Shown: piece after piece, positions 1 to 28,347 of the stretch | Layout: every line of letters begins with the position of its first letter | Numbering within the stretch: position 1 is the first letter of the stretch | Assembly: GCA_934613415.1 (NCBI GenBank) | Contig: CAKTSY010000003.1 | Location: forward strand, 60,001-92,000 | DNA from: an uncultured Opitutales bacterium | GTDB taxonomy: Bacteria > Verrucomicrobiota > Verrucomicrobiia > Opitutales > Intestinicryptomonadaceae | DNA length: 32,000 nucleotides | Direction: 5' to 3' | The notes under the pieces: model-generated | Database searches by the model: none | What the model was told of the DNA's origin: nothing | What the model saw: the letters and a program-made list of their open reading frames with translations, nothing else | Program-made: the position numbers and the translations under genes

Positions 1-866
1 ATACCCAAGACGACGAAAGATTTTTGATATCCGAAGCAGTTAGGGGCGAAGGCGCAATTTTGCGCAATATTAAGGGCGAAGCTTTTATGGCAAAGTACGA
101 CCCGCGCAAAGACTTAGCCCCGCGCGACATAGTAGCGCGCGCCATAGACTCGGAAATGAAAAGGCTTGGCTCTGCCCACGTTTGGCTAGACATTACGCAC
201 GTTCCGCGCGAAACGCTTAAAAACCGCTTCCCGAAAATTTTCGAGCACTGCCTGTCGAAAGGCATAGACATTTCTAAAGACTATATGCCCGTTGTTCCCG
301 CGGCACACTACCAGTGCGGCGGCATACAGACAAAAATAGACGGCTCGACCAACATCGGCGGCCTGTACGCCTGCGGCGAAGTTGCCTGCACGGGGCTTCA
401 CGGCGCAAACAGGCTTGCAAGCAACTCTTTGCTTGAAGCCGTTGTAATAGCCCACAAGGCCTCGGCTGCGGCTTTAAAGTATCTCGAAAACGCAACCTTT
501 ATAGAAAGGGAGCTTCCCGCCTGGGTAGACGGCCACCTGAGGGATTCCGACGAAAGGTTCATTCTTTCGCACAATATGGACGAACTTAAGCGCACAATGT
601 GGGACTATGTAGGCATTGTAAGAACCTCGAAAAGGCTCGACCGCGCCGAACGCCGCATAAAAAACTTGGGAGCCGAAATAGACGAATATTACTGGAACTT
701 CAAGGTAGAGGAAAAGCTGCTAGAACTTAGAAATATGATTCAAGTTGCCCTGCTTATAATTCAATGCGCCAAAAAGCGCAAGGAAAGCCGCGGGCTGCAC
801 TACACCTTAGACTACCCGCACAAGGCCAAGAAAATAGTAAACAGCGTTGTCTGCAAAAAACTATGA
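1..866 (+). CDS. nadB: L-aspartate oxidase, C-terminal part (5' end lies outside the window)
   Basis: Frame 3 is open from the window edge (TQDDERFLISEAVRGEGAILRN...). Flavoprotein motifs RGEGA, HYQCGGI, GLYACGEVACTGLHGANRLASNSLLE and the C-terminal ESRGLHY are present. The TTG at 24 used by the ORF track is internal, not the start. Confidence 0.9.
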   Translation, partial: TQDDERFLISEAVRGEGAILRNIKGEAFMAKYDPRKDLAPRDIVARAIDSEMKRLGSAHVWLDITHVPRETLKNRFPKIFEHCLSKGIDISKDYMPVVPAAHYQCGGIQTKIDGSTNIGGLYACGEVACTGLHGANRLASNSLLEAVVIAHKASAAALKYLENATFIERELPAWVDGHLRDSDERFILSHNMDELKRTMWDYVGIVRTSKRLDRAERRIKNLGAEIDEYYWNFKVEEKLLELRNMIQVALLIIQCAKKRKESRGLHYTLDYPHKAKKIVNSVVCKKL

Positions 867-1411
867 ACCGCATAGATTTAAACAAGCACATAGCAAAGGT
901 TGCCGACTTTCCCAAAAAGGGAATTCTGTTCTTCGATATTACGCCCCTTTTTACCGATTCCGACGCCTTTTTTAAGGTTGTAGAAGACTGGGCAGACCTG
1001 CTTAAAAACGTAAAGGCCACAAAAATTTTGGCTATGGAAGCCCGCGGCTTTTTGTTTGCCGCCCCCCTTGCCATTGCGCTTAATTTGCCCCTTGTTTTGG
1101 TTCGCAAGAAGGGGAAATTGCCCCGCCAAACCCTAGACGAAACCTACGACCTGGAATACGGCTCGGCTACAATTTCCGTCCACAAAGACGACATATCCGA
1201 AAACGACTCGGTTATTATTGTAGACGACCTTCTCGCCACGGGCGGCACGGCAAAAGCCGCATGCAACCTGGTTAAAAAACTGGGGGCAAAAACGGCGTTG
1301 TGCACGTTCCTTTGCCAGCTGGATTTCCTTGACGGCAAAAAAACGCTTGCCGGCGAAAATATTTTAACGATGTACACTTGCAAAGACTCTGATTTTTGTT
1401 GCAATTTTTAA
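863..1411 (+). CDS. apt: Adenine phosphoribosyltransferase (182 aa)
   Basis: The ATG at 863 overlaps the nadB stop (ATGA, 863-866). Motifs: ADFPKKGILFFDITPL, EARGFLF, YDLEYG, and the PRPP-binding VIIVDDLLATGGT. The 764-862 extension in the ORF track lies inside nadB and was discarded. Confidence 0.9.
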   Translation: MNRIDLNKHIAKVADFPKKGILFFDITPLFTDSDAFFKVVEDWADLLKNVKATKILAMEARGFLFAAPLAIALNLPLVLVRKKGKLPRQTLDETYDLEYGSATISVHKDDISENDSVIIVDDLLATGGTAKAACNLVKKLGAKTALCTFLCQLDFLDGKKTLAGENILTMYTCKDSDFCCNF

Positions 1412-1435: not shown

Positions 1436-1825
1436 ATGCAATTCGAAGCTTATTTACCAGTATTTTTACAAATAGTCCTGTCGGTGGCGATGGGGCTTGG
1501 AATTATCGCGGCAAGCTGCATATTCGGACAAAGAGCGAAAAAGAACGCCATAAACAACTCGCCCTACGAATGCGGTATGCCAACTTTCGGCAAAGCCCAT
1601 ATGAATATGGGGGTTAAATTCTATGTTGTTGCCCTGCTTTTTGTGGTGTTCGACATAGAAGTGCTTTTTATGATTCCCTTTGCCCTTATTTATTCCGACT
1701 TTGTAGCCGCAAATATTTCCATTATAGCGGTTGTTATGTTCTTCTTGGCTCTTATGATAGCCGGCATAATATACGAAGTAAAAAAGAACGCCCTAGACTG
1801 GAATATCCCCAAAACAAATCTCTGA
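1436..1825 (+). CDS. nuoA: NADH-quinone oxidoreductase subunit A (NuoA/ND3/NdhC family), 129 aa, 3 TM. Not followed by nuoB.
   Basis: Family core SPYECGMPTFGKA...KFYVVALLFVVFDIEVLFMIPFA, plus three hydrophobic helices. Confidence 0.8.
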   Translation: MQFEAYLPVFLQIVLSVAMGLGIIAASCIFGQRAKKNAINNSPYECGMPTFGKAHMNMGVKFYVVALLFVVFDIEVLFMIPFALIYSDFVAANISIIAVVMFFLALMIAGIIYEVKKNALDWNIPKTNL

Positions 1826-1838
1826 TAGCTAAATTGAT

Positions 1839-3206
1839 ATGGATTTAAGCAAGTATATCGCAAAATCGAGAATAATAGAAATTAAAAGCGCCGACTTTGA
1901 GGGCGCAATAAAGGAAATGCTCGATGCCGTGCCAAGCGAGTTTTTAAAACCGCAAAGCACAAAAGAAGGTATACTTAAAGACGTTGTAGCCCGCGAAAAA
2001 AATATGCCCACCTACTTGGGCGGCGGCGTGCTTATGCCACATGCAAAGGCGCAAATTAAATCCAGCTATGTTTTTGTTGTGGGTATGTGCCCAAACGGCA
2101 TTAGTTTCGACACAAACCGCAACGAATATTCGGAAACAAGGCTTATATTTTTGCTTTTGGCAAACGGCGTGCTTAAAAACTACCTAAACACGCTTTCTAC
2201 AATAGCAAAGCTTTTTGCCCAGCCCGACGTTCACGCCGAAATCTTCGGCAAAACCGACTTTGAGGGCTTTAAGGAAAGCATTTGGAAAATCTTCGGCAAA
2301 AAGGGCAAGTCCGACAACAAATCGGGTTCGGGCGTAGCCAAAATGAGCAGGGTTGCAAAACGCTTTCTTTCGCAGGCAATGCGCATTGCAAAAACCTCGA
2401 AATCTACCTGCGTTATGCTTTTCGGCGACACGTTCCCTTCGGGGGTAGACACAGGCGAAATTTTTGGCGGTCTAAAAACACTTATTGTTACAGAACGCTC
2501 GGCGGAAGACTTCCCCGGCAAAAAGACGGCAACAATTTCGATTAAGTCGTACTCGGGTCGCAGAATGACGGGCTTTGGCAGCGCCATAATTATGGGGCTT
2601 ACAAAGGGACTTATAGAGCGCAACGAAAAAATATGCTGCATAGGCGGCATAAAAGACAGCAAAACTTTCGACACCGTTGTGGTTGTAGACATAGCCCAGG
2701 AATTTTCAAAAATAATGAACCTGCAAAGCAACTTGGTGCCCGCAGGCGTGAAGCCCGAAGTTGTCGAAAGAGTTTTGATTATTGCTTCGGATTTGTCGGT
2801 TGAAGGCAGGGAAGGCAAACCCGTTGGCTGCCTTTTTGTTGTAGGCGACGCAAAAAAAATCCGCCCCTTTACAAAGCAGCTTATATTAAACCCATTTTAC
2901 GGCTACAAGCCCGAAGAGCGCAACATTTTAAGCCCCTTTATGGACGAAACTGTAAAGGAGCTTTCCCTTATAGACGGCGCCGTTATTATAGACGGCTCGG
3001 GCGCAATAGAAAGTGCGGGAACATTAATTCATACGCCCGACTTTAATTTAAAGCTGCCGGGCGGGCTGGGCGCAAGGCACGCCGCGGCCTACTCGGTTTC
3101 CGTTTCGGCCGACTGCCTGGCCTTTGTAGTTTCGTCTAGCACGGGCATAATAAGCGTGTTCCGCAACGGGCAAATGCTGCCCTTGAACGAGAAAAACCAC
3201 TCTTAG
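1839..3206 (+). CDS. Three-domain protein: PTS EIIA type-2 (PtsN-like) domain + PK_C-like alpha/beta module + diadenylate cyclase (DAC/DisA_N) domain
   Basis: aa 1-150 follow the EIIA_2 pattern with the phospho-His loop TYLGGGVLMPHAK (His68, nt 2040-2042). A G/K/S-rich linker spans aa 153-171. aa ~175-295: CVMLFGD...LIVTERS...ICCIGG...VVVVDI. aa ~300-450 form the DAC domain: REGKPVGCLFVVGD, NPFYGY, LIDGAVIIDG (DGA at nt 2973-2981) and GARHAAAYSVS (R413-H414). No TM segment. Confidence 0.75.
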   Translation: MDLSKYIAKSRIIEIKSADFEGAIKEMLDAVPSEFLKPQSTKEGILKDVVAREKNMPTYLGGGVLMPHAKAQIKSSYVFVVGMCPNGISFDTNRNEYSETRLIFLLLANGVLKNYLNTLSTIAKLFAQPDVHAEIFGKTDFEGFKESIWKIFGKKGKSDNKSGSGVAKMSRVAKRFLSQAMRIAKTSKSTCVMLFGDTFPSGVDTGEIFGGLKTLIVTERSAEDFPGKKTATISIKSYSGRRMTGFGSAIIMGLTKGLIERNEKICCIGGIKDSKTFDTVVVVDIAQEFSKIMNLQSNLVPAGVKPEVVERVLIIASDLSVEGREGKPVGCLFVVGDAKKIRPFTKQLILNPFYGYKPEERNILSPFMDETVKELSLIDGAVIIDGSGAIESAGTLIHTPDFNLKLPGGLGARHAAAYSVSVSADCLAFVVSSSTGIISVFRNGQMLPLNEKNHS

Positions 3207-3219
3207 TTTTCGCTATTTT

Positions 3220-4617
3220 ATGAAAATTTACTTTATGGGCATTTGCGGCACTGCAATGGGCAACGCCGCTTGTATGATGAAAGAAGCAGGCCACCAGGTT
3301 TTCGGCTCCGACAAGGGCGTTTACGACCCGATGAAAAGCGTTCTCGAAAATGCCGGCATTGAGATTCACGACGGCTTTAGTGTAGACTACCTAAAAAGCG
3401 TTTCGCCCGACTTGGTTGTTGTAGGCAACGCCGTAAGCCGAATGAACGAGGAAGTAGAGTTTTTGCTTAACACGCGCGCTTACGAATTTACAAGTTTAGC
3501 CGACCTTATCTCAAAATACGCAATTTCGTCTAGAAAATGTTTGGTAGTAAGCGGCACGCACGGCAAAACCACAACAACCTCTATGGCGGCGGTTTTGCTT
3601 AAAAGCCAAGATGCAAATACAGGCTACCTAATTGGCGGAGTTCCGCAAGACCTCGAAAGCGGCTCGAAACTTGGCGGCAAAAATTCCCCCTTCGTAATAG
3701 AAGGCGACGAATACGACACTGCGTTTTTCGACAAGCGCAGCAAGTTTATTCACTATAGGCCCCGCGTTTTGATAATAAACAACATCGAGTTCGACCACGC
3801 CGATATTTTTAGGGATTTAACCGACGTAAAACGCACCTTTACCCATGTAAGACGCATTGTAGCCGGCATTGGCGCAATTGTAGAAAATGCCGACGACGCC
3901 AACATTGCCTCTTTGGAAGACACCCCTTGGACAAAGCGCATAAAAGTGGGTTTTGCCCCGACTGCAGACCTTAAAATTTTAAACTTTACGCAGAACGAAA
4001 ACGGCTCGTCTTTCGACCTGCAAAACGAGTTTAAAACTGTGCACATTCACTGGAATCTTTCGGCGGAATATAACGCGCGAAATGCAGCAATGGCAATTGC
4101 GGGCACGGCGTTGCTTTTGGGCAAAAAGCACACTTTAGATTTAGACATAAGCCCTTTGTTCGGCTTTAAGGGCGTAAAACGCAGGCAAGAAGTTCTGTAT
4201 TCAAGCAAAAAGGTGGCTATTGTAGAAGACTTCGGGCACCATCCCACCGCCGTTAGAAATACAATTTTGGCGATGCGCAAAAAATATCCTTTAAGGAAAA
4301 TTTTTGCATGCTTTGAGCCGCGCAGCAACACTTCGCGCACAAACGTTTTTCAAGACGAATTTGCCGATGCCCTAAGCTGTGCCGACCGAATTTTTGTAGG
4401 GCAAGTTAAGAATCTAGAAAAAGTGCCACAGCAAAAGCGCATAGACTTTTTAAAAATGGCGCAAAAATCGACAAAGCCATTTGCCCATTACGACGACAAC
4501 CAAAAGCTTTTGGCAGATTTAAAAGACGCGGTAAAAAACGAATCGTCTTCGTGCGTAATATTCTTTAGCAACGGCTCTTTCGACTCAATCCAGCATTCAA
4601 AAGAAATTAGAATGTAA
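3220..4617 (+). CDS. mpl: UDP-N-acetylmuramate:L-alanyl-gamma-D-glutamyl-meso-diaminopimelate ligase (murein peptide ligase)
   Basis: The N-terminus MKIYFMGICGTAMGNAA...GSDKGVYDPM is Mpl-type rather than MurC-type. It has the Mur-ligase P-loop SGTHGKTTTTSM and EGDEYDTAFFDKRSKF. At 465 aa it is colinear with Mpl. Confidence 0.85.
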   Translation: MKIYFMGICGTAMGNAACMMKEAGHQVFGSDKGVYDPMKSVLENAGIEIHDGFSVDYLKSVSPDLVVVGNAVSRMNEEVEFLLNTRAYEFTSLADLISKYAISSRKCLVVSGTHGKTTTTSMAAVLLKSQDANTGYLIGGVPQDLESGSKLGGKNSPFVIEGDEYDTAFFDKRSKFIHYRPRVLIINNIEFDHADIFRDLTDVKRTFTHVRRIVAGIGAIVENADDANIASLEDTPWTKRIKVGFAPTADLKILNFTQNENGSSFDLQNEFKTVHIHWNLSAEYNARNAAMAIAGTALLLGKKHTLDLDISPLFGFKGVKRRQEVLYSSKKVAIVEDFGHHPTAVRNTILAMRKKYPLRKIFACFEPRSNTSRTNVFQDEFADALSCADRIFVGQVKNLEKVPQQKRIDFLKMAQKSTKPFAHYDDNQKLLADLKDAVKNESSSCVIFFSNGSFDSIQHSKEIRM

Positions 4618-6933: not shown

Positions 6934-9741
6934 TTACAGCTTGTCGGCGTCTATTTGCTCTAGAATTGTTCCGTCGCTATTGAATATGTTTTGGGGCTTT
7001 ATGCTTACCGAATATTTCGGGTCGGAAAATGTGTTGGAAACCTTTATTTGAATTGCGCCTATTAGCGGGTTAAAGGCGGTAGACGCTATTTTTGAAATAA
7101 GCGGCAGCGTTTCGCCGCCAAGCCACTTAAAATATAACTTTGCCGAAATTTCGTCGCTAAGGCAGTTGTATTTTGCCTTGCCGCTTATGGTCGACGAAGT
7201 CCCGTTTATTTCCAGCTTTTGGAACGACAATTCGCCGTTTTCAAGAGTAACCTGCGAAAGCAGTTTGTCGTACTTAAATGTTGCTATTGGGAAGTGTAAT
7301 TTTTCGAGAGCAACCGAAATGCCGCCCAAAATATTTAGCTTTGCCAAATTTTCGTTTTTCAATTCGGCGGTTACACTGCCGTTTATGCTTTTAAAATCGT
7401 CCAAATAGCCCTGGGCAGTTCCCTTTATATCTACCAAACCTTTTTCGGGGGCTTCGTCGGCTTTCTTTTTTGCGCCTGCCAAAGCCGCAATAAAATCTTC
7501 GGCACGCTGCTGGTCTATGCCGTCTACATCGAAAGCCGCCTTAAAAAATCGGCGTTTGTTTTCCTTTTTAACCGAAAACGCCCCCAAGTTTATTTTGCCG
7601 CCGCAAAAAACGCCGCTTACGTCTTTTATATCAAAATCTTCGTCTAAGCCCGTGCCAATTCCGCGTATGCTGTCGAAGGGAAAGCCGCCTATGTCTATAA
7701 ATTCGGGAATATCGAATTTAAATTTTATGTTTTGCTTTGCGTCTTTTTCGCGCGCCAAGTTCGCACAGCGCAAATCCAAATCTATGTTGGCATAGCCCGA
7801 AAAGCGCAAGACGTCTTTTAACTCGTCAACATCTTCGCCGCCAAGGGCAAACAAGGCGTCGCTTTTCATATTCGCATTTGCAATAACCCTGCGCTCGTAA
7901 TACTTGTCCAAGCCTTTGTCTGGATCGTATGTCCAGCACAAAGCCGCTTTTGCAAAGCCCTTGTCGGTATCTAAAATGTCTACGTCGTAAATCGAAATAA
8001 CCGAAGGATCTACATTTATCTTAAGCGACACGCCGCCAAAAAGGTGATTGTTATACAGCGCATCTTCGCCCTTTATTGAAACAAAACACCAGATAAAATC
8101 GGGATCGCCCCAGCGACTTTTTATGTAGGCATTTGCATACGGAAAACCTTTTTTAAATTCGAACTCGCCCATAATGCGGCTCCACCAGTCTTCCATAAAG
8201 TGGTTTATTGCGGCGGGCCTTAAAGTGCCGTCTATATAAAATTCGTAGTCTAGATTCTTTATATTTTGGTAAATGTCGCCTTTAATTTGCCAGCCTTCGG
8301 GCGAAGCTACAAAAGCGTTGCCCGCAAACAGCTCTCCGCTTTGCGAATCGAAAGTTATGTCGGCATACGACTCTACCGACGGTATTTTATAGAACACGCA
8401 ATTTTTGCCGGCAAACTTTGCCGAAACAAAAAACTGCATATTTTCCATATTAAAATCTGCACTGCCCGCCAAATATACTCCCTCGCTAAAGTCGAAATCG
8501 CGCAGCTCATCTACTTTCGGCATAAAACTAAAGCTGGTCGCAAACAGCGGGTTTTCGAAGGTGTTAAACTGCGCGCTGACATTTGCGCCGCTTCTGGTTG
8601 CGATAAGCTTTGTATAAAAATCGCCCTTTCTTTTTATGTATATTTCCGCCATTGTCGGGATATGGTCGGCAAGCGAAAGTTTGTCGGCATAAATATCGGC
8701 ATAGGCAAATCTTTGCCCGTCAAACAAAACGTCTACAGCCGAAATTTCGGCGTTAAACAACGCCTTGTTTTCGAAATCTACAAGCGCAAATGCGTCTAGA
8801 TTTTTCAGCGTGCTTTTGCCGAATATGTCGGCATAGCCTGCTTCGAGCATAACTTTTGCGGTTTTTTTGCTTATGTTTTGCTTCGACATTTGCGCCATAA
8901 CCGCAATGTTCTCAAACGAAACATCGCCCATATTTTCTACCGGAACAACCACCGAATTTGCACCGTATACAAGCTTTAAAGAGTCAAGTCCTTCGCTTGT
9001 AGCGTCGAAATTTACAACCAGTGCCGAGTTGCCGAACCTGTCGGCATATTCGCGGCCGCTCTCCAAAAATTTGCAGAAATTGTCCCACATTTTAGCAGGC
9101 GTTTTGTGCTGGGCTTTTTCTTTTTGTTCGGGCTTGTCTTTGCCGCGCTGCGCAAAAATTTTTTCGCTAAATGTGCCTGCTGCCCTAATTGCAACTCTGC
9201 CAAAGTGCGCCCTTAGTTTTTCCAGCCTCCACCAAATGCCGCTACCAGAAAGCGCAAAGCTTGTTTTTTCAAGCAGCCAGCCCTTTTCGGAGCCTTCGCT
9301 TGAATTTATTTTTGCGTTTTCAACATAAATTTTGTTTACAAGAAATTCGCCCCTAAGCAGGGCTAAAACGGAGATGTCTACAACAACTTTGTCGGCGTTT
9401 AAAAATTCCGCCGAAGTTCCCGCAAACCTTAGCGACAGGCCTCTTATTTGAACCTGTCCTTTTGCGTTAATCCTTATGTCGTTTTCGTTGGCAACAACGC
9501 CCTGTTTGGATAAATGCGAATGCAGCAATTCAACAAAAGAATCGTTTACTGCAAACGAAACGGAATAGGCAAGCGCAAGCAACAGCGCACTTTGCGCCAA
9601 CAACGCCGCGAACAAAAAGACGTTGAATATGTAAAGAGCCGTCTGCAATGCCCTTTTAACGGCTTTGCCGAAAGCGTTGTCTTTCGATATTTTCACCTTA
9701 TTTTGCGTTTTGCGCCTGCGTTTGAGACGAGTTTGCCCCAA
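6934..9741 (-). CDS. AsmA-like (AsmA/TamB/YhdP superfamily) envelope protein, N-terminal membrane anchor
   Basis: A basic N-terminus is followed by the TM helix ALQTALYIFNVFLFAALLAQSALLLALAYSV. The AsmA-type N-terminal pattern follows (IRINAKGQVQIRGLSLRF...ADKVVVDISVLALLRGEFLVNKIYVENAKI). The C-terminal AsmA_2-like segment is FDKLLSQVTLENGELSFQKLEINGTSSTISGKAKY. The start is uncertain: TTG 9741 overlaps the upstream gene by 44 nt, while GTG 9696 lies 1 nt after its stop. Confidence 0.7.
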   Translation of the reverse strand: MGQTRLKRRRKTQNKVKISKDNAFGKAVKRALQTALYIFNVFLFAALLAQSALLLALAYSVSFAVNDSFVELLHSHLSKQGVVANENDIRINAKGQVQIRGLSLRFAGTSAEFLNADKVVVDISVLALLRGEFLVNKIYVENAKINSSEGSEKGWLLEKTSFALSGSGIWWRLEKLRAHFGRVAIRAAGTFSEKIFAQRGKDKPEQKEKAQHKTPAKMWDNFCKFLESGREYADRFGNSALVVNFDATSEGLDSLKLVYGANSVVVPVENMGDVSFENIAVMAQMSKQNISKKTAKVMLEAGYADIFGKSTLKNLDAFALVDFENKALFNAEISAVDVLFDGQRFAYADIYADKLSLADHIPTMAEIYIKRKGDFYTKLIATRSGANVSAQFNTFENPLFATSFSFMPKVDELRDFDFSEGVYLAGSADFNMENMQFFVSAKFAGKNCVFYKIPSVESYADITFDSQSGELFAGNAFVASPEGWQIKGDIYQNIKNLDYEFYIDGTLRPAAINHFMEDWWSRIMGEFEFKKGFPYANAYIKSRWGDPDFIWCFVSIKGEDALYNNHLFGGVSLKINVDPSVISIYDVDILDTDKGFAKAALCWTYDPDKGLDKYYERRVIANANMKSDALFALGGEDVDELKDVLRFSGYANIDLDLRCANLAREKDAKQNIKFKFDIPEFIDIGGFPFDSIRGIGTGLDEDFDIKDVSGVFCGGKINLGAFSVKKENKRRFFKAAFDVDGIDQQRAEDFIAALAGAKKKADEAPEKGLVDIKGTAQGYLDDFKSINGSVTAELKNENLAKLNILGGISVALEKLHFPIATFKYDKLLSQVTLENGELSFQKLEINGTSSTISGKAKYNCLSDEISAKLYFKWLGGETLPLISKIASTAFNPLIGAIQIKVSNTFSDPKYSVSIKPQNIFNSDGTILEQIDADKL

Positions 9742-11548
9742 GCTCGTACAGTGCCGCCGACAACTTTGGGTCTAGCAGCACAAGCTCGCCGTTTACAAGC
9801 GCAAATTGTTCGTTTGCCGAAATCCTTTCGCCGAAGGGAATCTGCAAAGTCGAAATTTCGTCGGTGCCCGTTCCGGGGGTGGAAATTTCAACGCAAAGTT
9901 TGTAAAGCCAGTCGCTCTTTTTAGAGTTTATCGTATAAGACGCGGCGTCTGCAACGCCCTTTGCATAGGCTTTAATGTAGAATTTTTTAGCAAAGTCTGC
10001 CAATGTTTTTAGGGCGTTTTTCTTTTGCAAAGAAAGGTTTTGCGCACCACCCAAATTTTCGCCGTTTTGGGCCGCTGCATAAAACAGTGGCTTTTCGCTT
10101 TTTAAGTCTAAAATAGATATCGAAACAATTTTCGATTTTTCGGGCATCGAAAACGACAACTTGCTTTTATAGTCTAAAAAGTCTGGCTTAAAGTTGCGTA
10201 TAAGCTCGCCGCTTATTCCGTAAATGCTGGGGTTTGAATCTACTTTAGCGTAGTACAAAGTAGCCGCCCCCTCTTTGTAAGGCTTGCCAATGCTTATGGT
10301 TTTTCGCGCGTTGTCGGCAAACGCCAAAGTTATCTTAAGCGAGGGATTGTCCAAGCCAAATTGCGCCAAATTTTCGTCGGGCAAATCGCTTACATACGAA
10401 TACGCTATTGTGTTTCTCAACGCCGACAATATGCGCGAAACCGTTGCGGCATCGGCGCTTGTGGGGGCTATTACGGTTTCGCCGCGCTTGCCCGAAACGT
10501 CCCATGCGTCGCCTACCTTTTTAAGGTTTACCATATCCGAACCCGAAGCGATTTCTATTTGCTGGCACGAGTGTTCGGGGAATCTGAAAATATTTTTTTC
10601 CCTCAAAGAATTTTGAAGGGCTGCCAAGTTTTCGAAGGGGGCCAAATCGAGAGTGAAAATTGTGGGGTTGCCAGCAATCTTTGCATAGATTTTGCCTTTT
10701 GCGGAATCGGCTTTGCCGAAATAGATTGTCTGCGAGCGGTTTGTGCCGTCTAGTGTCATACTTATCGGCCACGACATTGCGTCTAGCCCGGCCTCCACTT
10801 CGCTTACATTTTCAAAACTTTTTATTAAAGCCGACGAAACCGCATTTATAAACGCGTCTACCGCATGGCTCGAAGCCGCCGCCGAAATGGGAGTTTCGAA
10901 ACGCCATTTACCCTCGGCATTGCGGGTTAGCCCTATTCTTTTCCACGAAGTTTTTGCCCTTGTTTTTGCGTCTTCTAAGGGCAGCCTTAAGGTTATGGAA
11001 GCTATTTCGAATTTGGGAATGTCTATAACGCTTTGGCTGCGCAAACGCTCTATGTCTACCATAAGCGCATCGGCAAGCTCTCTGTCGGCAACAACAACCC
11101 TGTTTTGCATAGAGTCTAGCATATAAACCTTGTCGCCAACCGATGCGTTTTTGCCTATTTTTAGCGAATACATTGTTTTGCCGTCGCCGTACTTAAACAC
11201 GCAAACGGGTTCTTTTAGGCCGTAGTCGTCTAAACTTTGCCCGTGCGAGGCAATTTCGGAAACCGAAAAACCGTTTTCGCTGTCTAAAAATTCCAAATTT
11301 CTTAAAATTCTGTTTACCGCAAAATAGTTTGCCTGCCACTGAATTGGCGAAATTATGCGCCACTTGTTGTTTTCGAACACCAAAATGCGGGGCTTGTCTA
11401 CGTTCTTGCCGTCTACCTGAAGCCTTGTAATTTCAACCAAAGCCCTCTGGCTTTGCGCTGGGGCCGCCTGCGAAAATTCAAGTTTAAATATGGCAAGCAG
11501 CGCGGCCACATTGGCAATCAAAAGAAAAATCGTAAAACGTATCCGCAT
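9698..11548 (-). CDS. DUF4340-like single-pass membrane/periplasmic protein (616 aa), partner of GldG-type ABC systems
   Basis: The start was moved to ATG 11548 (MRIRFTIFLLIANVAALLAIF, signal-anchor), preceded by AGGAGG. The body is long and beta-rich. It sits immediately after a GldG-like gene, as is typical for DUF4340. The family call rests on pattern and context, not on a search. Confidence 0.6.
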   Translation of the reverse strand: MRIRFTIFLLIANVAALLAIFKLEFSQAAPAQSQRALVEITRLQVDGKNVDKPRILVFENNKWRIISPIQWQANYFAVNRILRNLEFLDSENGFSVSEIASHGQSLDDYGLKEPVCVFKYGDGKTMYSLKIGKNASVGDKVYMLDSMQNRVVVADRELADALMVDIERLRSQSVIDIPKFEIASITLRLPLEDAKTRAKTSWKRIGLTRNAEGKWRFETPISAAASSHAVDAFINAVSSALIKSFENVSEVEAGLDAMSWPISMTLDGTNRSQTIYFGKADSAKGKIYAKIAGNPTIFTLDLAPFENLAALQNSLREKNIFRFPEHSCQQIEIASGSDMVNLKKVGDAWDVSGKRGETVIAPTSADAATVSRILSALRNTIAYSYVSDLPDENLAQFGLDNPSLKITLAFADNARKTISIGKPYKEGAATLYYAKVDSNPSIYGISGELIRNFKPDFLDYKSKLSFSMPEKSKIVSISILDLKSEKPLFYAAAQNGENLGGAQNLSLQKKNALKTLADFAKKFYIKAYAKGVADAASYTINSKKSDWLYKLCVEISTPGTGTDEISTLQIPFGERISANEQFALVNGELVLLDPKLSAALYELGANSSQTQAQNAK

Positions 11549-11555
11549 AATAAAA

Positions 11556-13037
11556 CTACCTCCTAAAGAAAGAAACCAAAAGCCCAATTATTGCAATAAA
11601 CGCAGGCAAAAGCGCAAACCTAAACGCAAGAGAAAACACATCGCCTTCGCTGAGCGTAATAGAATACTTGCTCATCGAGCGCGGCACAATGTTAAGCATA
11701 CTGTCTCTTTCAAGCATCCAGTTTACGGTATTGTATAAAAGCTTAGAGTTGCCCAAGCGGTTGAAAAGTCTGTTCGAGGCAAAGTCTTCGTCGCCAAAAA
11801 CTGCAAGTTTGCCGCCGGGTATTTTTAGCCCCAAATCGTTGTTGCCCGTGCGCGATGCTACCATTGCAACGGGAACGGGGCCTTTAAAATCAACCGCTTC
11901 GTCGTACTTAAAGCCCGAATTTTTGTAGTTTTTCTCCGCCCAGCTTGCAGGGGTGCTATACATTAAAACGTCTCTTTTAATGCTTTCGTCTATGGCGGCT
12001 CCCATATCCTCCCTTACCATTCTTGTAGAGCCGAACTGAAGGGGCAAATCGGCATCTACCAAATAGCGAACAATCTTGTGCGGATTTTGCGAAAAGCTTT
12101 TTACAACCAAGTCACCCCCCGTGCTTTCGCCCGAATTTGCGGCTTCTATAACCATTGCATCGTCGGTGCGAATGCCCCAGTCGAACAGAATTTCGTCTAG
12201 ACCGTTCGTGTCGCCCATACCGAAAAACATAATTATGTTGCCGTTCGATTTTAACAGGTAGTTTTTAAGCAAATCTATTTCGCGCGGCAAAAAGGTTGCC
12301 TGCGGAGCTGCAATAACAATAAGGGCGGCGTTTTGCGGAATTTGTTTTGCCTCGGTTAAATTTAAGTCGGCAATTTTGAAATTGCGGCTTGTTAAATACG
12401 ATGCAAATTCCGACATACCCTTTATAGGATCGGCACTGCGGTAGCTCATTTCGCCGTGGCCGGAAAGGAAATATATTTTGCCGTCGTCGTTTTGCGTTAC
12501 CGAAAGCATTGCCGAACTTATCGCCTGCTCGCCCTTCCACGAAACTTTGTTCGGGGCGTTAAGGTCGTATAAATCCGAAAGGCTTAAAATCTTGAATTTT
12601 TTTGCGGCGTTGTTCGAAACAATCACGCTGTTTTCTATGTCTTTGCCGAACTTTGATACAATTTCCTCTACCTTTTTACTTTCTATATGGGGATTTATAA
12701 AATGCGCCCTTATCTTTGCCGAGTTTTTCATCGACAAATATTCGTATTGGGAAAGGGTTTTGTGAAGGTCTTTTAAAACCGAATCGCCGTCTAAGTCGCC
12801 TATGCCGCGCCTTACGGTAACGTAAATGTCTATGGGCTCTTTTAGGCCGTTTATATATGCCGTGCTTTCAAGCGAAAGCGAGTTTTTGCGGTTTTCGGAA
12901 ATATCGAATTTAAAGTAGTGCCTTGCCGCCAAAAAGTTTAGCGACAAAAACAGCAAAACACCCAAGAAAATCTGAATTGTTAGGTTCAGGGTATTTGCCT
13001 TGCGCGCAAATCTAAAATCTTTAAAAGCCGCTCTCAT
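11556..13037 (-). CDS. GldG-like ABC-transporter auxiliary protein (ABC_transp_aux family), 493 aa
   Basis: The start was moved to ATG 13037, which overlaps the permease stop (ATGA, 13034-13037). It has the N-terminal TM LTIQIFLGVLLFLSLNFLAA followed by FDISENRKNSLS, the motif KIYFLSGHGE, and the C-terminal TM FALLPAFIAIIGLLVSFF. Confidence 0.8.
   Translation of the reverse strand: MRAAFKDFRFARKANTLNLTIQIFLGVLLFLSLNFLAARHYFKFDISENRKNSLSLESTAYINGLKEPIDIYVTVRRGIGDLDGDSVLKDLHKTLSQYEYLSMKNSAKIRAHFINPHIESKKVEEIVSKFGKDIENSVIVSNNAAKKFKILSLSDLYDLNAPNKVSWKGEQAISSAMLSVTQNDDGKIYFLSGHGEMSYRSADPIKGMSEFASYLTSRNFKIADLNLTEAKQIPQNAALIVIAAPQATFLPREIDLLKNYLLKSNGNIIMFFGMGDTNGLDEILFDWGIRTDDAMVIEAANSGESTGGDLVVKSFSQNPHKIVRYLVDADLPLQFGSTRMVREDMGAAIDESIKRDVLMYSTPASWAEKNYKNSGFKYDEAVDFKGPVPVAMVASRTGNNDLGLKIPGGKLAVFGDEDFASNRLFNRLGNSKLLYNTVNWMLERDSMLNIVPRSMSKYSITLSEGDVFSLAFRFALLPAFIAIIGLLVSFFRR
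11559..11564 (-). promoter_or_regulatory. Shine-Dalgarno AGGAGG for the DUF4340 gene (the only strong SD noticed in the window)
   Basis: The minus strand reads AGGAGGTAGTTTTATTATG. The SD is embedded in the last codons and stop of the GldG-like gene, 10 nt before ATG 11548. Confidence 0.5.
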
Positions 13038-13798
13038 CTGCGTATGTCCATAACTATTGTTGTTATCGCCAAAAACAGGGCGCAAATGCTAGAATAGTAA
13101 AAGAAGGGCCTAGTATCCAACATTGCCGAACCGAAATCTTCCAAATGCTTAAAGGTTTGCATATAATCGGCCAAGGCTCCAAACCAGGCAAAGCTTCCGC
13201 TTTCGGGAATGTAGAATTTGTTTAAAAGCCCCCCGCCTATAAGCACGCAAAACAGCATGCAAAAGCTAAGCATTGCGGCAACTAGCGTAGTGCGCGTCAA
13301 AGACGAGGCAAAAACGCCTATTGCAACGTAGCTTAGCCCGCTTATAAAGATAAATAAATAGCCAGAAACCGTCTCGCCCAGCGAAAACACACCGCCATTT
13401 ACCGCCGAATGCGGTATAAACAAAAGAGTTATAAGCGGGAAAATCAAAGTAATGGCCCAAAGCAAAACATAATATAGGTAGCACGCCGCAAACTTTGCCG
13501 CCACTATTTGGAAAATGCTAACGGGCGTTGTCATTAAAGCATCTAACACGCCCGACTTTTTTTCGTCGGCAAAGCTGCGCATTGTAAGAATGGGCACCAA
13601 AAACAAAACGGGAATCCAAAACACCGCCAAAAACTTTTCGGTTGCCGACACGGTAGACGCCCTTTCGCTTAAATCCACCAAGCTTAGCAGGTATATAAAG
13701 CCCATAAACGCCGTAAACAGCACGCCTGCAACGTATGTAGACGGGCTTAGCATCATCATATACACCTGATTCGAAAACATTGTATAAAATTTTTTCAT
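13034..13798 (-). CDS. ABC-2 type transporter permease (GldF-like), 254 aa
   Basis: About six hydrophobic helices. It lies between an ABC ATPase and a GldG-like gene, with a 6-nt gap to the ATPase gene. Confidence 0.8.
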   Translation of the reverse strand: MKKFYTMFSNQVYMMMLSPSTYVAGVLFTAFMGFIYLLSLVDLSERASTVSATEKFLAVFWIPVLFLVPILTMRSFADEKKSGVLDALMTTPVSIFQIVAAKFAACYLYYVLLWAITLIFPLITLLFIPHSAVNGGVFSLGETVSGYLFIFISGLSYVAIGVFASSLTRTTLVAAMLSFCMLFCVLIGGGLLNKFYIPESGSFAWFGALADYMQTFKHLEDFGSAMLDTRPFFYYSSICALFLAITTIVMDIRR

Positions 13799-13804
13799 TC
13801 GCTT

Positions 13805-14809
13805 TTACGAGTCTTTGTTTTTTATATCGACAACGCTTTCCCAGCTGCGTTTTGTAGCCGCCATAAATATGTCTTCAAGCGTGGGCTTTTTGCGGTAAAC
13901 CTCTCTAAGACGCAATGCCGTGTCTTTCGAAAGCTCGCAAACAATCTTTTCGCCCATATCTTCTGGTATCGGCGTTTTTACGGTAAATTCCGAAAAGCCT
14001 TCGTCGTCTTGCTTGGTTGCAGAATCCAAAACAAGAGAAGAGTCTATTATACCAAGCAAATTTTGCATTTGCTCGGACGAAGCTTTTGCGGATATTTTGT
14101 ATACGCTTTCGGTTATAAATTCGCGGCGCAATTCGTCGGGACTGCCGTTGGCTACAATTTCGCCCTGATTTATTATTATAACCCTGTCGCACATAAGCTC
14201 TATTTCGGGCAGTATGTGGCTGCTTATAATAACGCTCATTTCGCCCCTAAGCGAATTTATCAGGCGGCGTATCGCCAAAATCTGGTGCGGGTCTAGCCCT
14301 ATGGTGGGCTCGTCCATAATGATAACTTCGGGCTTTGCCAAAATTGCGTCGGCAATGCCAACCCTTTGCCTAAAACCTTTCGAAAGATTGCCTATTATGC
14401 GCTTTGCTGCCTTTCTTTTAAGCTGGCAAATTTCCATAACCTCGTCTACTCTGGCCTTGTATTCGCGGCGAGACAATCCCTTAATTTTTGCCCTGTAGCG
14501 CAAATATTCAATAACGCGCATATCTTCGGGCAGGGGGTTGTTTTCAAGCATAAAGCCTATGTGTTTTTGCGCCAAATCGGGGTAGTTTGCAACGCTTTCG
14601 CCGCAAATGTAGGCGCAGCCGCTGGTGGCTGGCATCAACCCGCTTATTATGCGCATAGTCGTGCTTTTCCCCGCCCCGTTTGGACCCAGAAAACCGAGTA
14701 TCTCGCCCTTTTTAATCGAGAACGAGACATCGTCTAAAGCTTTCAGTTCGCCGTATTTCTTTGTTAAGTGGCTTACGACGACCGAATAATTTTCGCCCGC
14801 TTCGGCCAT
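13805..14809 (-). CDS. ABC transporter ATP-binding protein (GldA-like) with C-terminal accessory domain
   Basis: Walker A GPNGAGKSTT, signature LSKGFRQRVGIA, Walker B IIMDEPTIGLDP, H-loop SSHIL, and a ~90-aa C-terminal extension. Confidence 0.9.
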   Translation of the reverse strand: MAEAGENYSVVVSHLTKKYGELKALDDVSFSIKKGEILGFLGPNGAGKSTTMRIISGLMPATSGCAYICGESVANYPDLAQKHIGFMLENNPLPEDMRVIEYLRYRAKIKGLSRREYKARVDEVMEICQLKRKAAKRIIGNLSKGFRQRVGIADAILAKPEVIIMDEPTIGLDPHQILAIRRLINSLRGEMSVIISSHILPEIELMCDRVIIINQGEIVANGSPDELRREFITESVYKISAKASSEQMQNLLGIIDSSLVLDSATKQDDEGFSEFTVKTPIPEDMGEKIVCELSKDTALRLREVYRKKPTLEDIFMAATKRSWESVVDIKNKDS

Positions 14810-21021: not shown

Positions 21022-21029
<8 letters not shown>

Positions 21030-22695
21030 TGTGTTTAATTTTAAACCCTTCTATTTGCGATTTTACACTGTCGATTTCCGTTTCCAACAAAGACTCTTTT
21101 TGCGGTTTTAAAACCTTGCGCGAAATTTCCAAAAGCCCCAAGCATTCGTCGAACTTCTGCTTTTTTAGCAGCGCATTAAAAATTGGGATAGAAAGGTTAG
21201 AAAACGCTATAAGCCCGTCGTTTTTAAACACGCCCAAAAGCCTTTTATACGAAGAATTCAGCTTGTCGGCACTGTCTTCGGCTATGGCGGATTCCAACTC
21301 CATTCTTGCAAACGACATAGCAATGTCGGGGCGCGCCTGCCTTGTTTTTATTATTATCGAAGTAGAAAGCCTGCGAGCGTCGTCGAAGCGTTCAAGGTCT
21401 ATCAAATACTGCATAAGCTCGCGCCTAAAAGCGGCGTCTATGTCGGGATATTTTGCGGTAAAGCCCTTCATTGCCTGAGCATAAAGCTTAATTATATCGT
21501 TGTCGGAAGCCTTTCTGGCCTTGTACGACTTTATAAGAATGTTCCACGTTTCGGCATTTCGGTCGTCGAACTTTGCGGCGGCAAAGGCGCATTTTTCGGC
21601 TTTCGCATAGTCTTCGGCGTCGAGATACTCTTTTGCAAACGCCGTGCATACCATATTGTTGCGGTATTTTTCAAGATTGTAAAAGCCCTCGCACATTGCG
21701 CCCAAATCGTGGTCGGAAGCCTTTTCCCAAGTTTGCGGGTCGTAGGTTGTTCCCGTAACGAATCTGGAATCTTCGTAGCGGCCAACATTAAAATTCCAGT
21801 TGCCGGGGGCTTTCATATAGGCAACCCAGGCGTGCCCGCCGTCGGTACCAGCTCCCGATAATATGAAGGCCGGAACACCCTTTCGCTTTGCGACTTCGCT
21901 TGTGTAGTAGGCTTGATCGGTACAAATGCCGCCAAATTCCTTTATTGTGGAGAGCTTGTAGTTGCCGTAAGTCCAATCAAACTGCTTATTGTCCAAACGC
22001 TTTTTGTCGTATGTAATCGAAGGATACAGTTTGGGTATGTTTGCCAGCGTAGTCGATATTTTTTGCTGAACCCATTTTATGTCGTTTTCGTCGGAAAGGG
22101 CTGCAACTACAAACTTAAGCTCGCGCACCGAAAGCTTTTCGGTTGCAAACAAAAACCTGCCCTTTTCGCGCAAACCTACAATTGTTTCGAACGCCTTTTC
22201 AGGTTCCGGAAATTTTCTCGGCAAAATTTTGTCGGAAACTTGCGCGTGCGGCCATTCGTTTGGCGGAGGGGTGTCGAACACAACCGCTATTGCAACGGCA
22301 AGCCTTGGGTATTTTGCAAACTTTTCGGGAAAAGCATTGTAGATTTTCGCCAAAATCGCAAAAACCTGCTCGGTATTGTCGTCGTCGCACAATGTAGAAA
22401 CAAACTCGTTCCTTAGCTCGGTATTGTCGGCAAAAAACATTTTTAAATCAAGCGGCCAGTCTTTGCCGAATTTGTCTACAAGAGAATAATACTTTGAGTT
22501 TATAAGCGCGTTATACGCCTCTTTAAGCTTGCCCGCAGAATAGTCGGCAAAAGCGGCTTTGTTGTAGGTACTAGAAAGGGCGGGCAAATCGCCCTCGAAA
22601 ACTTTGGGACTTACCAACTCCGCCTTTTTTGGCGCGCCAAAACACGACACCACGCAAGCGCAAACAGTTGCAACTGCAAAATAACTAGGTTTCAT
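21022..22695 (-). CDS. Transglutaminase-like (Cys-His fold) lipoprotein with a C-terminal TPR-like helical region
   Basis: The start was set at ATG 22695 (MKPSYFAVATVCACVVSCFG, lipobox VVSC). Core motifs are GGICTDQAYYTSEVAKRKGVPA and GGHAWVAYM. The C-terminal ~200 aa are helical repeats. The longer ORF-track start (22887) would run into the divergent gene. Confidence 0.65.
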
Positions 22696-22757
22696 ATACA
22701 CACGAAAATTATTTACAGGCAAAGGCAACTTGTAAAGCACTAAAAGACAAAGCGTGC

Positions 22758-22786
22758 TTGAATATGCAACGGAATTTGCCAATATA
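22758..22786 (+). promoter_or_regulatory. Candidate sigma70-like promoter, TTGAAT-17-AATATA, ending 6 nt before the lipoprotein ATG (leaderless geometry)
   Basis: TTGAAT 22758-22763, 17-nt spacer, AATATA 22781-22786, AGAATT, ATG 22793. Confidence 0.35.
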
Positions 22787-22792
22787 AGAATT

Positions 22793-23227
22793 ATGAAAAC
22801 GATTTTTAAGCTTTTGCCCATTCTTTGTTTTGCGTTTGTGCTTTGTGGCTGCGCTTCGCTAAACGTTATGTATACGCCAACAAACAATGTAAATACGGCT
22901 TTACTTACAAAAACGCCGCCCCAAGATATACAAATTTTCGTTACGAGCCGCCCCGACTACCCCTATGTTGAATTGGGCACGCTTACAATAAGATCGGGGG
23001 TAATGTATGCCGATATGGCTACAATATACGAACAGTTCAGGCAAAAGGCTTCGCAAATAGGGGCAAATGCCATAATAATTATGGGAACTGCAACCGACAT
23101 CTACACAATGCCCGCCGTAACCTACGACTATTTCGGCAACGCCATATTCTACGACAGGGTAAACCAAGCCTATATATACAGAGCCGTTGCCATTGCCAAA
23201 AACAACGCAAAAATAAACATAAAATAG
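22793..23227 (+). CDS. Small lipoprotein of unknown function (144 aa)
   Basis: MKTIFKLLPILCFAFVLCGCASLN has a lipobox (LCGC). There is coding-like periodicity and no recognisable catalytic motif. The start was moved from 22754 to 22793 on signal-peptide grounds. Confidence 0.6.
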   Translation: MKTIFKLLPILCFAFVLCGCASLNVMYTPTNNVNTALLTKTPPQDIQIFVTSRPDYPYVELGTLTIRSGVMYADMATIYEQFRQKASQIGANAIIIMGTATDIYTMPAVTYDYFGNAIFYDRVNQAYIYRAVAIAKNNAKINIK

Positions 23228-27061: not shown

Positions 27062-27466
27062 TTAAAATTTATAGGGTATATGCCCTTTCATTTCGAAGCC
27101 GAACTTTTTATATACAAATTCGCCTTCGGGGGTTGAAATGCAGGTTATCCACTCTATGTTTTTTGCCTTTAAATATTGCAGAATGTTGCGGCACAAATTT
27201 GTTGCAACTCCGCAATTTCGGTGCGAATTTTCCACATATAAATCAAGCAAATACGCATCGGAAACACCGTCGCTTAACGCCCTAAATATCCCCACAATTT
27301 CGCCGTTTTGCTCGGCGCAAAAAACGCAAAAGCTGTTTTGCAGGCTATTTCTTAAATTTGCTATTTCTATTTGGCTATATTCTTTTGTCCAGCCAGCCTG
27401 TATGTATAGCGGCAAAATTTTAGCCGCCATACTTTCGTCTATTTGCTCCAGCCTAAAAATTTTCAT
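27062..27466 (-). CDS. GNAT-family N-acetyltransferase (134 aa)
   Basis: Acetyl-CoA motif A region LDLYVENSHRNCGVATNLCRNILQYL, with the GNAT beta-strand pattern before and after it. The start overlaps the upstream gene's stop (ATGA, 27463-27466). Confidence 0.8.
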   Translation of the reverse strand: MKIFRLEQIDESMAAKILPLYIQAGWTKEYSQIEIANLRNSLQNSFCVFCAEQNGEIVGIFRALSDGVSDAYLLDLYVENSHRNCGVATNLCRNILQYLKAKNIEWITCISTPEGEFVYKKFGFEMKGHIPYKF

Positions 27467-28347
27467 ACTTCAACCAAATTAAGCCTTTTAAACATTTCCG
27501 ACGGTGCCCACGACTCTTTTGCCTGCCGCAAGTGCTCTAGCCCCAAATCCTGCTCGCGGTTCATTTCCGATATTCCGTTTTTCAACAAAAATTCGGCTTC
27601 GTGCAAAACAATACATTGGGCGGCTCCGTGAATTTCCTTTTCAAATTTTTCGTAGTGAACAGAATATATAGAGTCGTTTATTTCGCCCATAATGGCCCCC
27701 GCAACAATCTGACCGTGTTCGTCTTTTAACACAAGCGGCATCAAATGCAGTTTGTCGAAAAATTCGAACGCATTTTGCATTGGCAAAAGCTCTTCGCTAA
27801 CCGCCCTTTGCAACATATATTCCCTAAATTCTGCAAAATTTGCGCCCTGGGGAACTTCGACAACATAATCGGGATTGTTCCTTTGAAACTGGCGTATAAG
27901 ATTGTGCTTTTTTCTTAGTTTTATGCCCTTTAGCGAAACTATGTTTTGGTTTTGGTAAATGTAGTCGTAGTCGTCTTCGGTTTGCTGGGCGTTAAAATAT
28001 TCTACCGCATTTGGATACAGCTGAAAATATTTCGGATTTGCGTCGAACACATATTTTACGGGGTAGCCCGAATCGCGCAGCTGCTTTATATGCCGCATTA
28101 ATTCTTCGGGGGCAATATCGGCGCCTATGGGGTATTGCAAATATTTGTCCGAAATATGGTAGGCAAATATTCGGTTTTGCTCGGTGTAAAAGCGCATATT
28201 GTCGCGCTTCCACATAAATATGTTAGAAAAACACCTTTCGCAGCTTTTTGTCGGATATGCTTTGGCTATAGCGTCGAAAAGCGGTTTATCCTCTATGGAT
28301 ATTTCCTTTAAAAGGGGCATAAAATATGTTTGTGATAAAGCATTCAT
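27463..28347 (-). CDS. DUF2156 (MprF C-terminal / lysyl-PG synthase-like tandem GNAT fold) protein, 294 aa
   Basis: ISIEDKPLFDAI...CERCFSNIFMWKRDNMRFY and SLKGIKLRKKHNLIRQFQRNNPDY match the conserved DUF2156 pattern (sfaNlf.W ... l.G.k...KRN.i..F). Confidence 0.7.
   Translation of the reverse strand: MNALSQTYFMPLLKEISIEDKPLFDAIAKAYPTKSCERCFSNIFMWKRDNMRFYTEQNRIFAYHISDKYLQYPIGADIAPEELMRHIKQLRDSGYPVKYVFDANPKYFQLYPNAVEYFNAQQTEDDYDYIYQNQNIVSLKGIKLRKKHNLIRQFQRNNPDYVVEVPQGANFAEFREYMLQRAVSEELLPMQNAFEFFDKLHLMPLVLKDEHGQIVAGAIMGEINDSIYSVHYEKFEKEIHGAAQCIVLHEAEFLLKNGISEMNREQDLGLEHLRQAKESWAPSEMFKRLNLVEV

Follow-up and report, generated by a model that had tools for sequence, protein, structure and literature searches.

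What signals diadenylate cyclases (DACs) respond to is a central open question in the study of cyclic di-AMP (c-di-AMP), and for most classes of these enzymes the input is indirect or not established. The question is raised by a gene for a 455-aa protein located in a 32,000-nt stretch of DNA, hereafter the window, from an uncultured Opitutales bacterium (GenBank assembly GCA_934613415.1, contig CAKTSY010000003.1, positions 60,001–92,000 of the forward strand). The protein joins a DAC domain to a type-2 EIIA domain of the phosphoenolpyruvate (PEP)-dependent phosphotransferase system (PTS), and the input of such an EIIA-DAC class is unusually legible: the site is a canonical phospho-His, for which the type of upstream kinase chain is known. 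Our favoured reading, to which we assign a probability of roughly 0.6, is that the protein is a cytoplasmic DAC of the DacZ lineage with an N-terminal phospho-acceptor EIIA domain, and that its output follows the PEP/pyruvate state of the cell.

Domain architecture and family of the cyclase

The gene and the parts of its product occupy the following positions in the window.

1839..3206, + strand: cyclase gene, ATG start, 455 aa, EIIA_2–DacZ_P (pyruvate-kinase-C-terminal-like, PK_C-like)–DAC, soluble
1839..2288, + strand: PTS EIIA type-2 domain, aa 1–150 (PF00359, PtsN alignment, Foldseek)
2289..2348, + strand: flexible G/K/S-rich linker, aa ~151–170 (low pLDDT; length variable in the alignment)
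2349..2723, + strand: DacZ_P / PK_C-like alpha/beta domain, aa ~171–295 (PF21755, fold)
2736..3206, + strand: DAC catalytic domain, aa ~300–455 (PF02457; DGA, G-x-G-x-R-H at aa 409–414, S432-x-S434)

An earlier note, prepared from the letters of the same DNA, had located this open reading frame (ORF) and its motifs and had divided the product into three domains, all of which agrees with the ORF, Pfam and fold data. In the profile scan which that note proposed, PTS_EIIA_2 (PF00359; aa 19–139, E 1.1e-15, 58.3 bits) and DAC (PF02457; aa 320–445, E 3.5e-20, 72.2 bits) scored above their cut-offs of 27 bits, and DacZ_P (PF21755; aa 178–289, E 3.2e-5, 24.0 bits) slightly below its cut-off of 27.4. 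The phospho-His loop TYLGGGVLMPHAK covers aa 58–70, with His68 encoded at nt 2040–2042; the DGA motif corresponds to D379-G380-A381 (nt 2973–2981) and GARHAAA to aa 411–417. No transmembrane (TM) segment was found in the cyclase, as had been stated before: the top 19-residue window of a Kyte-Doolittle hydropathy plot reaches 1.57 and falls on a beta-strand of the DAC domain.

A full-length AlphaFold2 model, made with a 147-sequence alignment of the family, has a mean pLDDT of 93.1 and a pTM of 0.90; the latter value, obtained for a three-domain chain, implies a defined, fixed packing of the domains against each other. The EIIA domain is modelled with pLDDT of 91–98, and in Foldseek searches against the PDB its fold resembles that of IIA-Ntr of Neisseria meningitidis (2a0j; E 3e-7, TM-score 0.80 over the target), while the fold of the C-terminal domain matches DisA, CdaA and CdaM with E of about 1e-7. 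When the middle domain was modelled in isolation (aa 166–300; pLDDT 89.5), its top 50 PDB matches were pyruvate kinases only (E about 2e-6, TM-score about 0.6 over the query). These matches, along with the DacZ_P profile, support the proposal of the earlier note that the middle module is PK_C-like. The G/K/S linker, also recognized at that time, coincides with the only low-confidence stretch of the model, its pLDDT being 66 over residues 151–170 and below 50 only at 158–162.

Homologues of the cyclase are numerous. A search of 5.8 billion proteins retrieved 2,217 of them at E<1e-5, and the identity of the cyclase to any database protein is at most 58%. The top 120 homologues are 423–471 aa long and contain PF00359 and PF02457 in all cases and PF21755 in 119; those which are named come from Opitutales, Cerasicoccus, Rubellicoccus or Verrucomicrobiota and are called either 'diadenylate cyclase' or 'PTS sugar transporter subunit IIA' by NCBI. 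When 50%-identity representatives were searched exhaustively with HMMER, 214 clusters were obtained at E<1e-30. When the top 150 representatives were sorted by architecture, ~96 proved to be EIIA-(mid)-DAC proteins, 41 consisted of DacZ_P-DAC only and one (P0190) was permuted; no haloarchaeal-looking sequence was found among these 150.

Relatives are encoded in at least 589 stretches of species-level reference genomes, the best 80 of which (L001–L080) constitute our locus set. Nearly all of the 80 are labelled as Opitutia/Verrucomicrobiota, including Opitutaceae, Puniceicoccaceae, Coraliomargaritaceae, Lacunisphaera, Cephaloticoccus and Nibricoccus; two bear the labels 'uncultured bacterium' and 'Polaribacter sp.'. 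Among the distant three-domain members, one carries an annotation to a Planctomycetaceae bacterium. The nearest relatives of the proteins encoded in the window are those of gut Opitutales, and the product of nuoA, the gene preceding that of the cyclase, is 64% identical to NuoA of Intestinicryptomonas porci.

As an architecture this is nothing new; it has been catalogued, is abundant in Opitutia and extends to Planctomycetota. The PTS_EIIA_2-DacZ_P-DAC family probably equals the class that Corrigan & Grundling 2013 named 'DacD', an identification based on matching taxa rather than on the original definition of the class. The scheme of these authors, which groups DACs by their attached domains, is reproduced in PMC6741144 (Braun 2019), where five representatives of the bacterial class 'DacD' appear: Lacunisphaera, Puniceicoccaceae, Coraliomargarita, 'Verrucomicrobia bacterium' and Opitutae bacterium. 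A division of DACs into 22 families (Galperin 2023) is cited in PMC12901056. The architectural novelty implied by the earlier note has to be given up, the family being widespread, named by NCBI, provided with a dedicated Pfam model for its middle domain (DacZ_P, PF21755) and matched in its taxa by 'DacD', which is listed from Opitutae only (PMC6741144). No experimental study of any EIIA-DAC protein was found in full-text literature searches, the key DAC reviews being outside the reach of these searches. The cyclase is a new member of a known DAC class that has been characterised so far by sequence alone.

Catalytic residues and the phospho-acceptor site

Conservation was assessed in 90 three-domain representatives from the 50%-identity clustered library, which are 27–58% identical to the query. 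Residues D379, G380, R413, H414 and S432 are invariant in all 90, as well as in the 147-sequence alignment, and the Asp and Gly of DGA and the R-H pair are also invariant in the two-domain relatives. The DAC domain is the best conserved of the three (0.61, against 0.42 for EIIA, expressed as the mean frequency of the top residue, and 0.35 for the middle domain). Its best NCBIfam match is to DacZ (NF041371; 103.1 bits), with CdaM, CdaA, CdaS and DisA scoring 28–37 bits and no equivalog cut-off being attained by any of the five, and on these grounds we assign the domain to the DacZ type.

Two substitutions relative to CdaA weigh against an active cyclase: the third residue of the RHR motif, Arg in CdaA, is Ala415, and the position of CdaA Glu224 is occupied by Ser434, the SEE of CdaA reading SSS in the cyclase. 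Such changes might be expected if the DAC domain were catalytically dead and the protein served as a nucleotide sensor or scaffold, a reading which we consider very improbable in view of the invariant DGA, R413, H414 and S432 and the conservation of the domain as a whole. Position 415 is Ala in 50 of the 90 representatives, Thr in 16, Gln in 8 and Arg in 7, other residues accounting for the remaining 9, and S-[E/Q/S/A]-S is found at the SEE position across the three-domain and two-domain (DacZ_P-DAC) relatives alike. RH[A/T] and S-x-S are common to the whole DacZ-type clade, two-domain relatives included. The earlier note had set GARHAAA apart from the GTRHRAA of other DACs; the sequence was given correctly, but the difference is a feature of the entire class and not a peculiarity of this protein. 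Active DisA likewise lacks the CdaA Glu at the SEE position, and the changes to Ala415 and Ser434 are not taken by us as likely to be inactivating. Among gut bacteria, Verrucomicrobiota are the main phylum with DacZ-type DACs, 19 species being tabulated with that type alone (PMC12901056), and this speaks for activity of enzymes of the type. The same tabulation gives the family a possible relevance to c-di-AMP from gut Opitutales that is active on the STING of the host.

In an alignment to PtsN of Escherichia coli (1a6j), Arg52, His68 and Tyr115 of the cyclase correspond to PtsN Arg57, His73 (the phosphorylated His) and His120, respectively. The top-conserved real columns of the EIIA domain are those of P67 (89/90), E53 (88/90), H68 (85/90) and R52 (83/90). 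In a domain which is otherwise variable, conservation of exactly these residues is the pattern expected from selection on phospho-acceptor chemistry. His68 had been designated the phospho-His in the earlier note, and its equivalence to PtsN His73 together with its strong conservation upholds that assignment. Further evidence is provided by P0190 (480 aa), in which the order of the domains is permuted to DacZ_P-DAC-EIIA_2, as confirmed by precomputed Pfam, and both His residues are kept within PH and FHL motifs. Since the permuted fusion has retained both motifs, the coupling of EIIA to DAC itself looks selected, which supports phospho-gating. The two loci that encode P0190 (L082, 10001–11443; L083, 2706–4148) have no nuoA neighbour. 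Both the catalytic and the phospho-acceptor residues of the cyclase are intact, and the protein is under purifying selection. From these comparisons, gating of c-di-AMP synthesis through His68 is a reasonable and plausible proposal.

The mechanism that we envisage is as follows. Two DAC domains would pair head-to-head and convert two molecules of ATP into c-di-AMP by means of the invariant DGA and R-H residues, as is known for the DAC family. How readily the productive pairing forms, and with it the fraction of productive dimers, would be set by DacZ_P, the PK_C-like domain, together with EIIA. His68, to judge from its conservation, would be phosphorylated by a carrier of the HPr/NPr type that is charged from PEP through Enzyme I, and the output of c-di-AMP would in this way track cellular PEP/pyruvate (carbon/nitrogen) status.

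Several observations count against this mechanism. The position of PtsN His120 is occupied by Tyr (Tyr115, nt 2181–2183) in all 43 Opitutia sequences aligned, and this could alter or abolish the phosphotransfer chemistry in Opitutia. His68 itself is lost in five of the 90 representatives, with DGA and RH intact, and given these losses it is not obligatory for the family; all five also lack a His at position 115. PTS genes (EI, HPr/NPr, HprK, EIIB/C) were found neither in the 32-kb window nor in ~1.2 Mb of related neighbourhoods, whole genomes being outside the scan. In the 92 loci, totalling 1.23 Mb, that were scanned with the EIIA profile of the family and with an HPr profile based on three sequences, there was no HPr and no second EIIA. 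No separate EIIA gene was found beside the two-domain (DacZ_P-DAC) relatives, the contigs of which are shorter than 3 kb.

The main rival reading draws on the same observations. It holds that the EIIA domain of Opitutia is no longer a phospho-acceptor and acts as a phosphorylation-independent module (a surface for protein interaction or a site for a small ligand) of a cyclase that is still active; the analogy would be with unphosphorylated PtsN, which binds TrkA/KdpD. Tyr115, the lack of a PTS partner in the sampled neighbourhoods and the five representatives that keep DGA and RH after the loss of His68 all fit this possibility. Without phospho-chemistry, however, it is hard to explain why His68, Pro67, Glu53 and Arg52 stand out as the top-conserved residues among proteins so divergent. 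In addition, the wider family mostly retains the second His (59/90 at position 115), and both His residues survive in the permuted P0190. We consider the phosphorylation-independent module possible but rather unlikely. If the favoured reading, phosphorylation of His68 as the input to the cyclase, is correct, the regulatory PTS and c-di-AMP, the controller of K+/osmolyte balance, which have been studied as separate systems, would be wired in series in bacteria of the Planctomycetes-Verrucomicrobia-Chlamydiae (PVC) group.

The lone nuoA and the surroundings of the gene

The cyclase gene is flanked by two genes that bear on its interpretation.

1436..1825, + strand: lone nuoA (complex I subunit A / ND3 homologue), 129 aa, 3 TM segments; Oxidored_q4 (PF00507), E 2.7e-27; 13 nt upstream of the cyclase gene
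3220–4617, downstream of the cyclase gene: mpl; TIGR01081, 352 bits, slightly under the cut-off of 388.7

The first of these had been described in the earlier note as an orphan nuoA. That the gene is a lone one was confirmed; what the note missed is that it is a conserved partner of the cyclase gene. In 77 of the 79 Opitutia loci having upstream sequence, the gene immediately before that of the cyclase, in the same orientation, is nuoA, and the median gap between the two genes in the loci of the set is 47 nt (range 1–174). Neither in the complete Rubellicoccus genome nor in I. porci is there a further nuo gene less than 10 kb away. No terminator-like site is present in the 13-nt gap of the window, and in Opitutia the cyclase gene is probably co-transcribed with nuoA. 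The genes nadB', apt, nuoA, dac (the cyclase gene) and mpl follow one another at short distances on a single strand of the window. At 24–1411 (+ strand) the window opens within nadB (C-terminal part of L-aspartate oxidase), and the stop of this gene and the likely start of apt (MNRIDLN..., near nt 863) share a few bases; the arrangement suggests a translationally coupled string nadB-apt-nuoA-dac-mpl.

The adjacency of nuoA and the cyclase gene might be nothing other than inherited gene order, leading at most to shared transcription, with NuoA being an ordinary subunit A of complex I that has no functional tie to the cyclase. In agreement with this explanation, none of the invariant complex I residues checked, those of the YECG loop and the FDIE motif among them, has been lost from the lone NuoA, and a second nuoA was found at none of the loci. 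Moreover, the linkage is limited to the class Opitutia: the more distant three-domain homologues, the one from Planctomycetaceae included, have other neighbours. Less readily accommodated is the persistence of the pair, with its short gaps, across several families in which NuoA is only 39–57% identical to that of the window, while both flanks have been reshuffled. Downstream of the pair are mpl, trpA, PhoD or unannotated ORFs, and the upstream position varies among apt, an ABC permease gene, the gene for ribulose-phosphate epimerase and an ORF of 395 aa; by sequence, the variable outer flanks include dnaG-like, rpoD-like, mrp-like and tolB-like genes in addition to trpA, PhoD, ABC permease genes and unannotated ORFs. 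A canonical nuoA, used as a control, sits in an operon and is followed by nuoB-C-D-G-H-I. Taken together, the odds that inherited order is the whole explanation appear to us to be about even.

Two side observations concern this part of the locus. A conserved ORF of ~395 aa, for which Pfam gives no match, is located ahead of nuoA and in the same orientation in ~37 of the 45 loci where it was detected (within L003–L080; e.g. L032, 2093–3280) and is absent from the window, where apt takes its place. The NuoA proteins of the gut-Opitutales subclade have F or L for the usual Trp of 'YPWA' and carry a C-terminal 'WNIPKTN' extension.

The near-universal pairing of nuoA and dac in Opitutia may point to a link of c-di-AMP with respiration or the membrane, although it is speculative that the cyclase is coupled, via NuoA, to respiratory complex I or the membrane. 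In its most far-reaching form the proposal would combine both strands of evidence: phosphorylation of His68 would switch c-di-AMP synthesis in PVC bacteria and, at the same time, the Opitutia cyclase would dock on NuoA, integrating PEP/pyruvate status, the state of respiratory complex I or the membrane, and a metabolite recognized by its PK_C-like domain. We regard this combination as quite doubtful; were it true, it would represent a physical link from the PTS through c-di-AMP to respiration, of a kind not known to have been described for any DAC. No description of the nuoA-dac pairing was found in the literature searched.

The second flanking gene, mpl, had been regarded in the earlier note as a loose parallel, through peptidoglycan recycling, to the cdaA-cdaR-glmM association. 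A functional tie of the cyclase to mpl and peptidoglycan recycling is, in our estimate, scarcely credible: mpl directly follows the cyclase gene in the window and in locus L001, but it is adjacent in only one of the 80 loci and within 8 kb in three, and the downstream genes are highly variable. The parallel has accordingly been dropped, and mpl as a conserved association is refuted by its adjacency in 1/80 loci.

No phosphodiesterase, K+ transporter, c-di-AMP riboswitch or other Rfam family was found in the window. On the Planctomycetaceae contig (L090), a gene for a 273-aa HD-domain protein (7057–7878, − strand) divergently adjoins the three-domain cyclase; its product is a candidate c-di-AMP phosphodiesterase. 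Elsewhere in the window, a four-gene cluster at 9698–14809 (− strand) encodes an ABC_tran ATPase, an ABC-2 permease, an ABC_transp_aux protein and a DUF4340 protein, presumably an ABC arrangement similar to that of GldA/F/G. Two large ORFs with TTG starts (6934–9741, − strand, 935 aa; 21022–22887, − strand, 621 aa) have no Pfam match at E<1e-4. At 27062–28347 (− strand), a GNAT acetyltransferase gene overlaps by 4 nt the start of a gene for an LPG_synthase_C protein (aminoacyl-phosphatidylglycerol synthase C-terminal-like), and the two form a possible lipid- or amino-acid-modifying pair.

Comparison with known systems

The cyclase has a core in common with DacZ/CdaZ (DacY) of Euryarchaeota, represented by Haloferax volcanii DacZ and Methanocaldococcus jannaschii CdaZ: a PK_C-like domain followed by the DAC domain. 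The likeness extends to the soluble nature of the protein, which is devoid of TM segments, and to its DAC domain, which scores best on the DacZ model. For H. volcanii DacZ, DAC activity in vitro is on record, and activity of CdaZ in a heterologous host is cited (PMC6741144). In contrast to the archaeal enzymes, the cyclase possesses an additional 150-aa N-terminal EIIA_2 domain with a flexible linker and is of bacterial (PVC group) origin. Nor is it an orthologue of DacZ: its score of 103.1 bits is far from the equivalog cut-off of 430, and the match spans only aa 250–447. There is no mscS partner gene, the partner in Opitutia being nuoA. From the 'DacD' class, the taxa of which are the same as those of the cyclase family, no difference is apparent.

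PtsN (EIIA-Ntr) of Proteobacteria has a regulatory rather than a transport role and is tied to K+ homeostasis. The EIIA domain of the cyclase has in common with it the fold and the context of the phospho-His, REK-x11-PH, including the equivalents of Arg57 and His73. In contrast to PtsN, however, this EIIA is not a stand-alone protein: its output is the covalently attached cyclase, whereas PtsN binds TrkA/KdpD, and the equivalent of His120 is Tyr. The scores on the PtsN equivalog models are correspondingly far below the cut-offs (TIGR01419, 32.3 versus 138.7 bits; NF008145, 22.1 versus 221).

An anti-phage role of the kind played by DACs in systems resembling CBASS (cyclic-oligonucleotide-based antiphage signalling system) was considered and rejected: the PADLOC match is weak and of a generic DAC type (17 bits, E 8e-4), and the neighbours are housekeeping genes.

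CdaA (DacA), finally, shares with the cyclase the DAC fold and the DGA and R-H residues, although the CdaA model (TIGR00159) gives 32.9 bits only, against a cut-off of 188.8. The cyclase differs from CdaA in having RHA for RHR and SxS for SEE, in lacking cdaR/glmM neighbours and in lacking the three-helix membrane anchor. CdaA carries its 3-TM anchor within its own chain, whereas the upstream partner of the Opitutia cyclase, NuoA, is a separate 3-TM protein.

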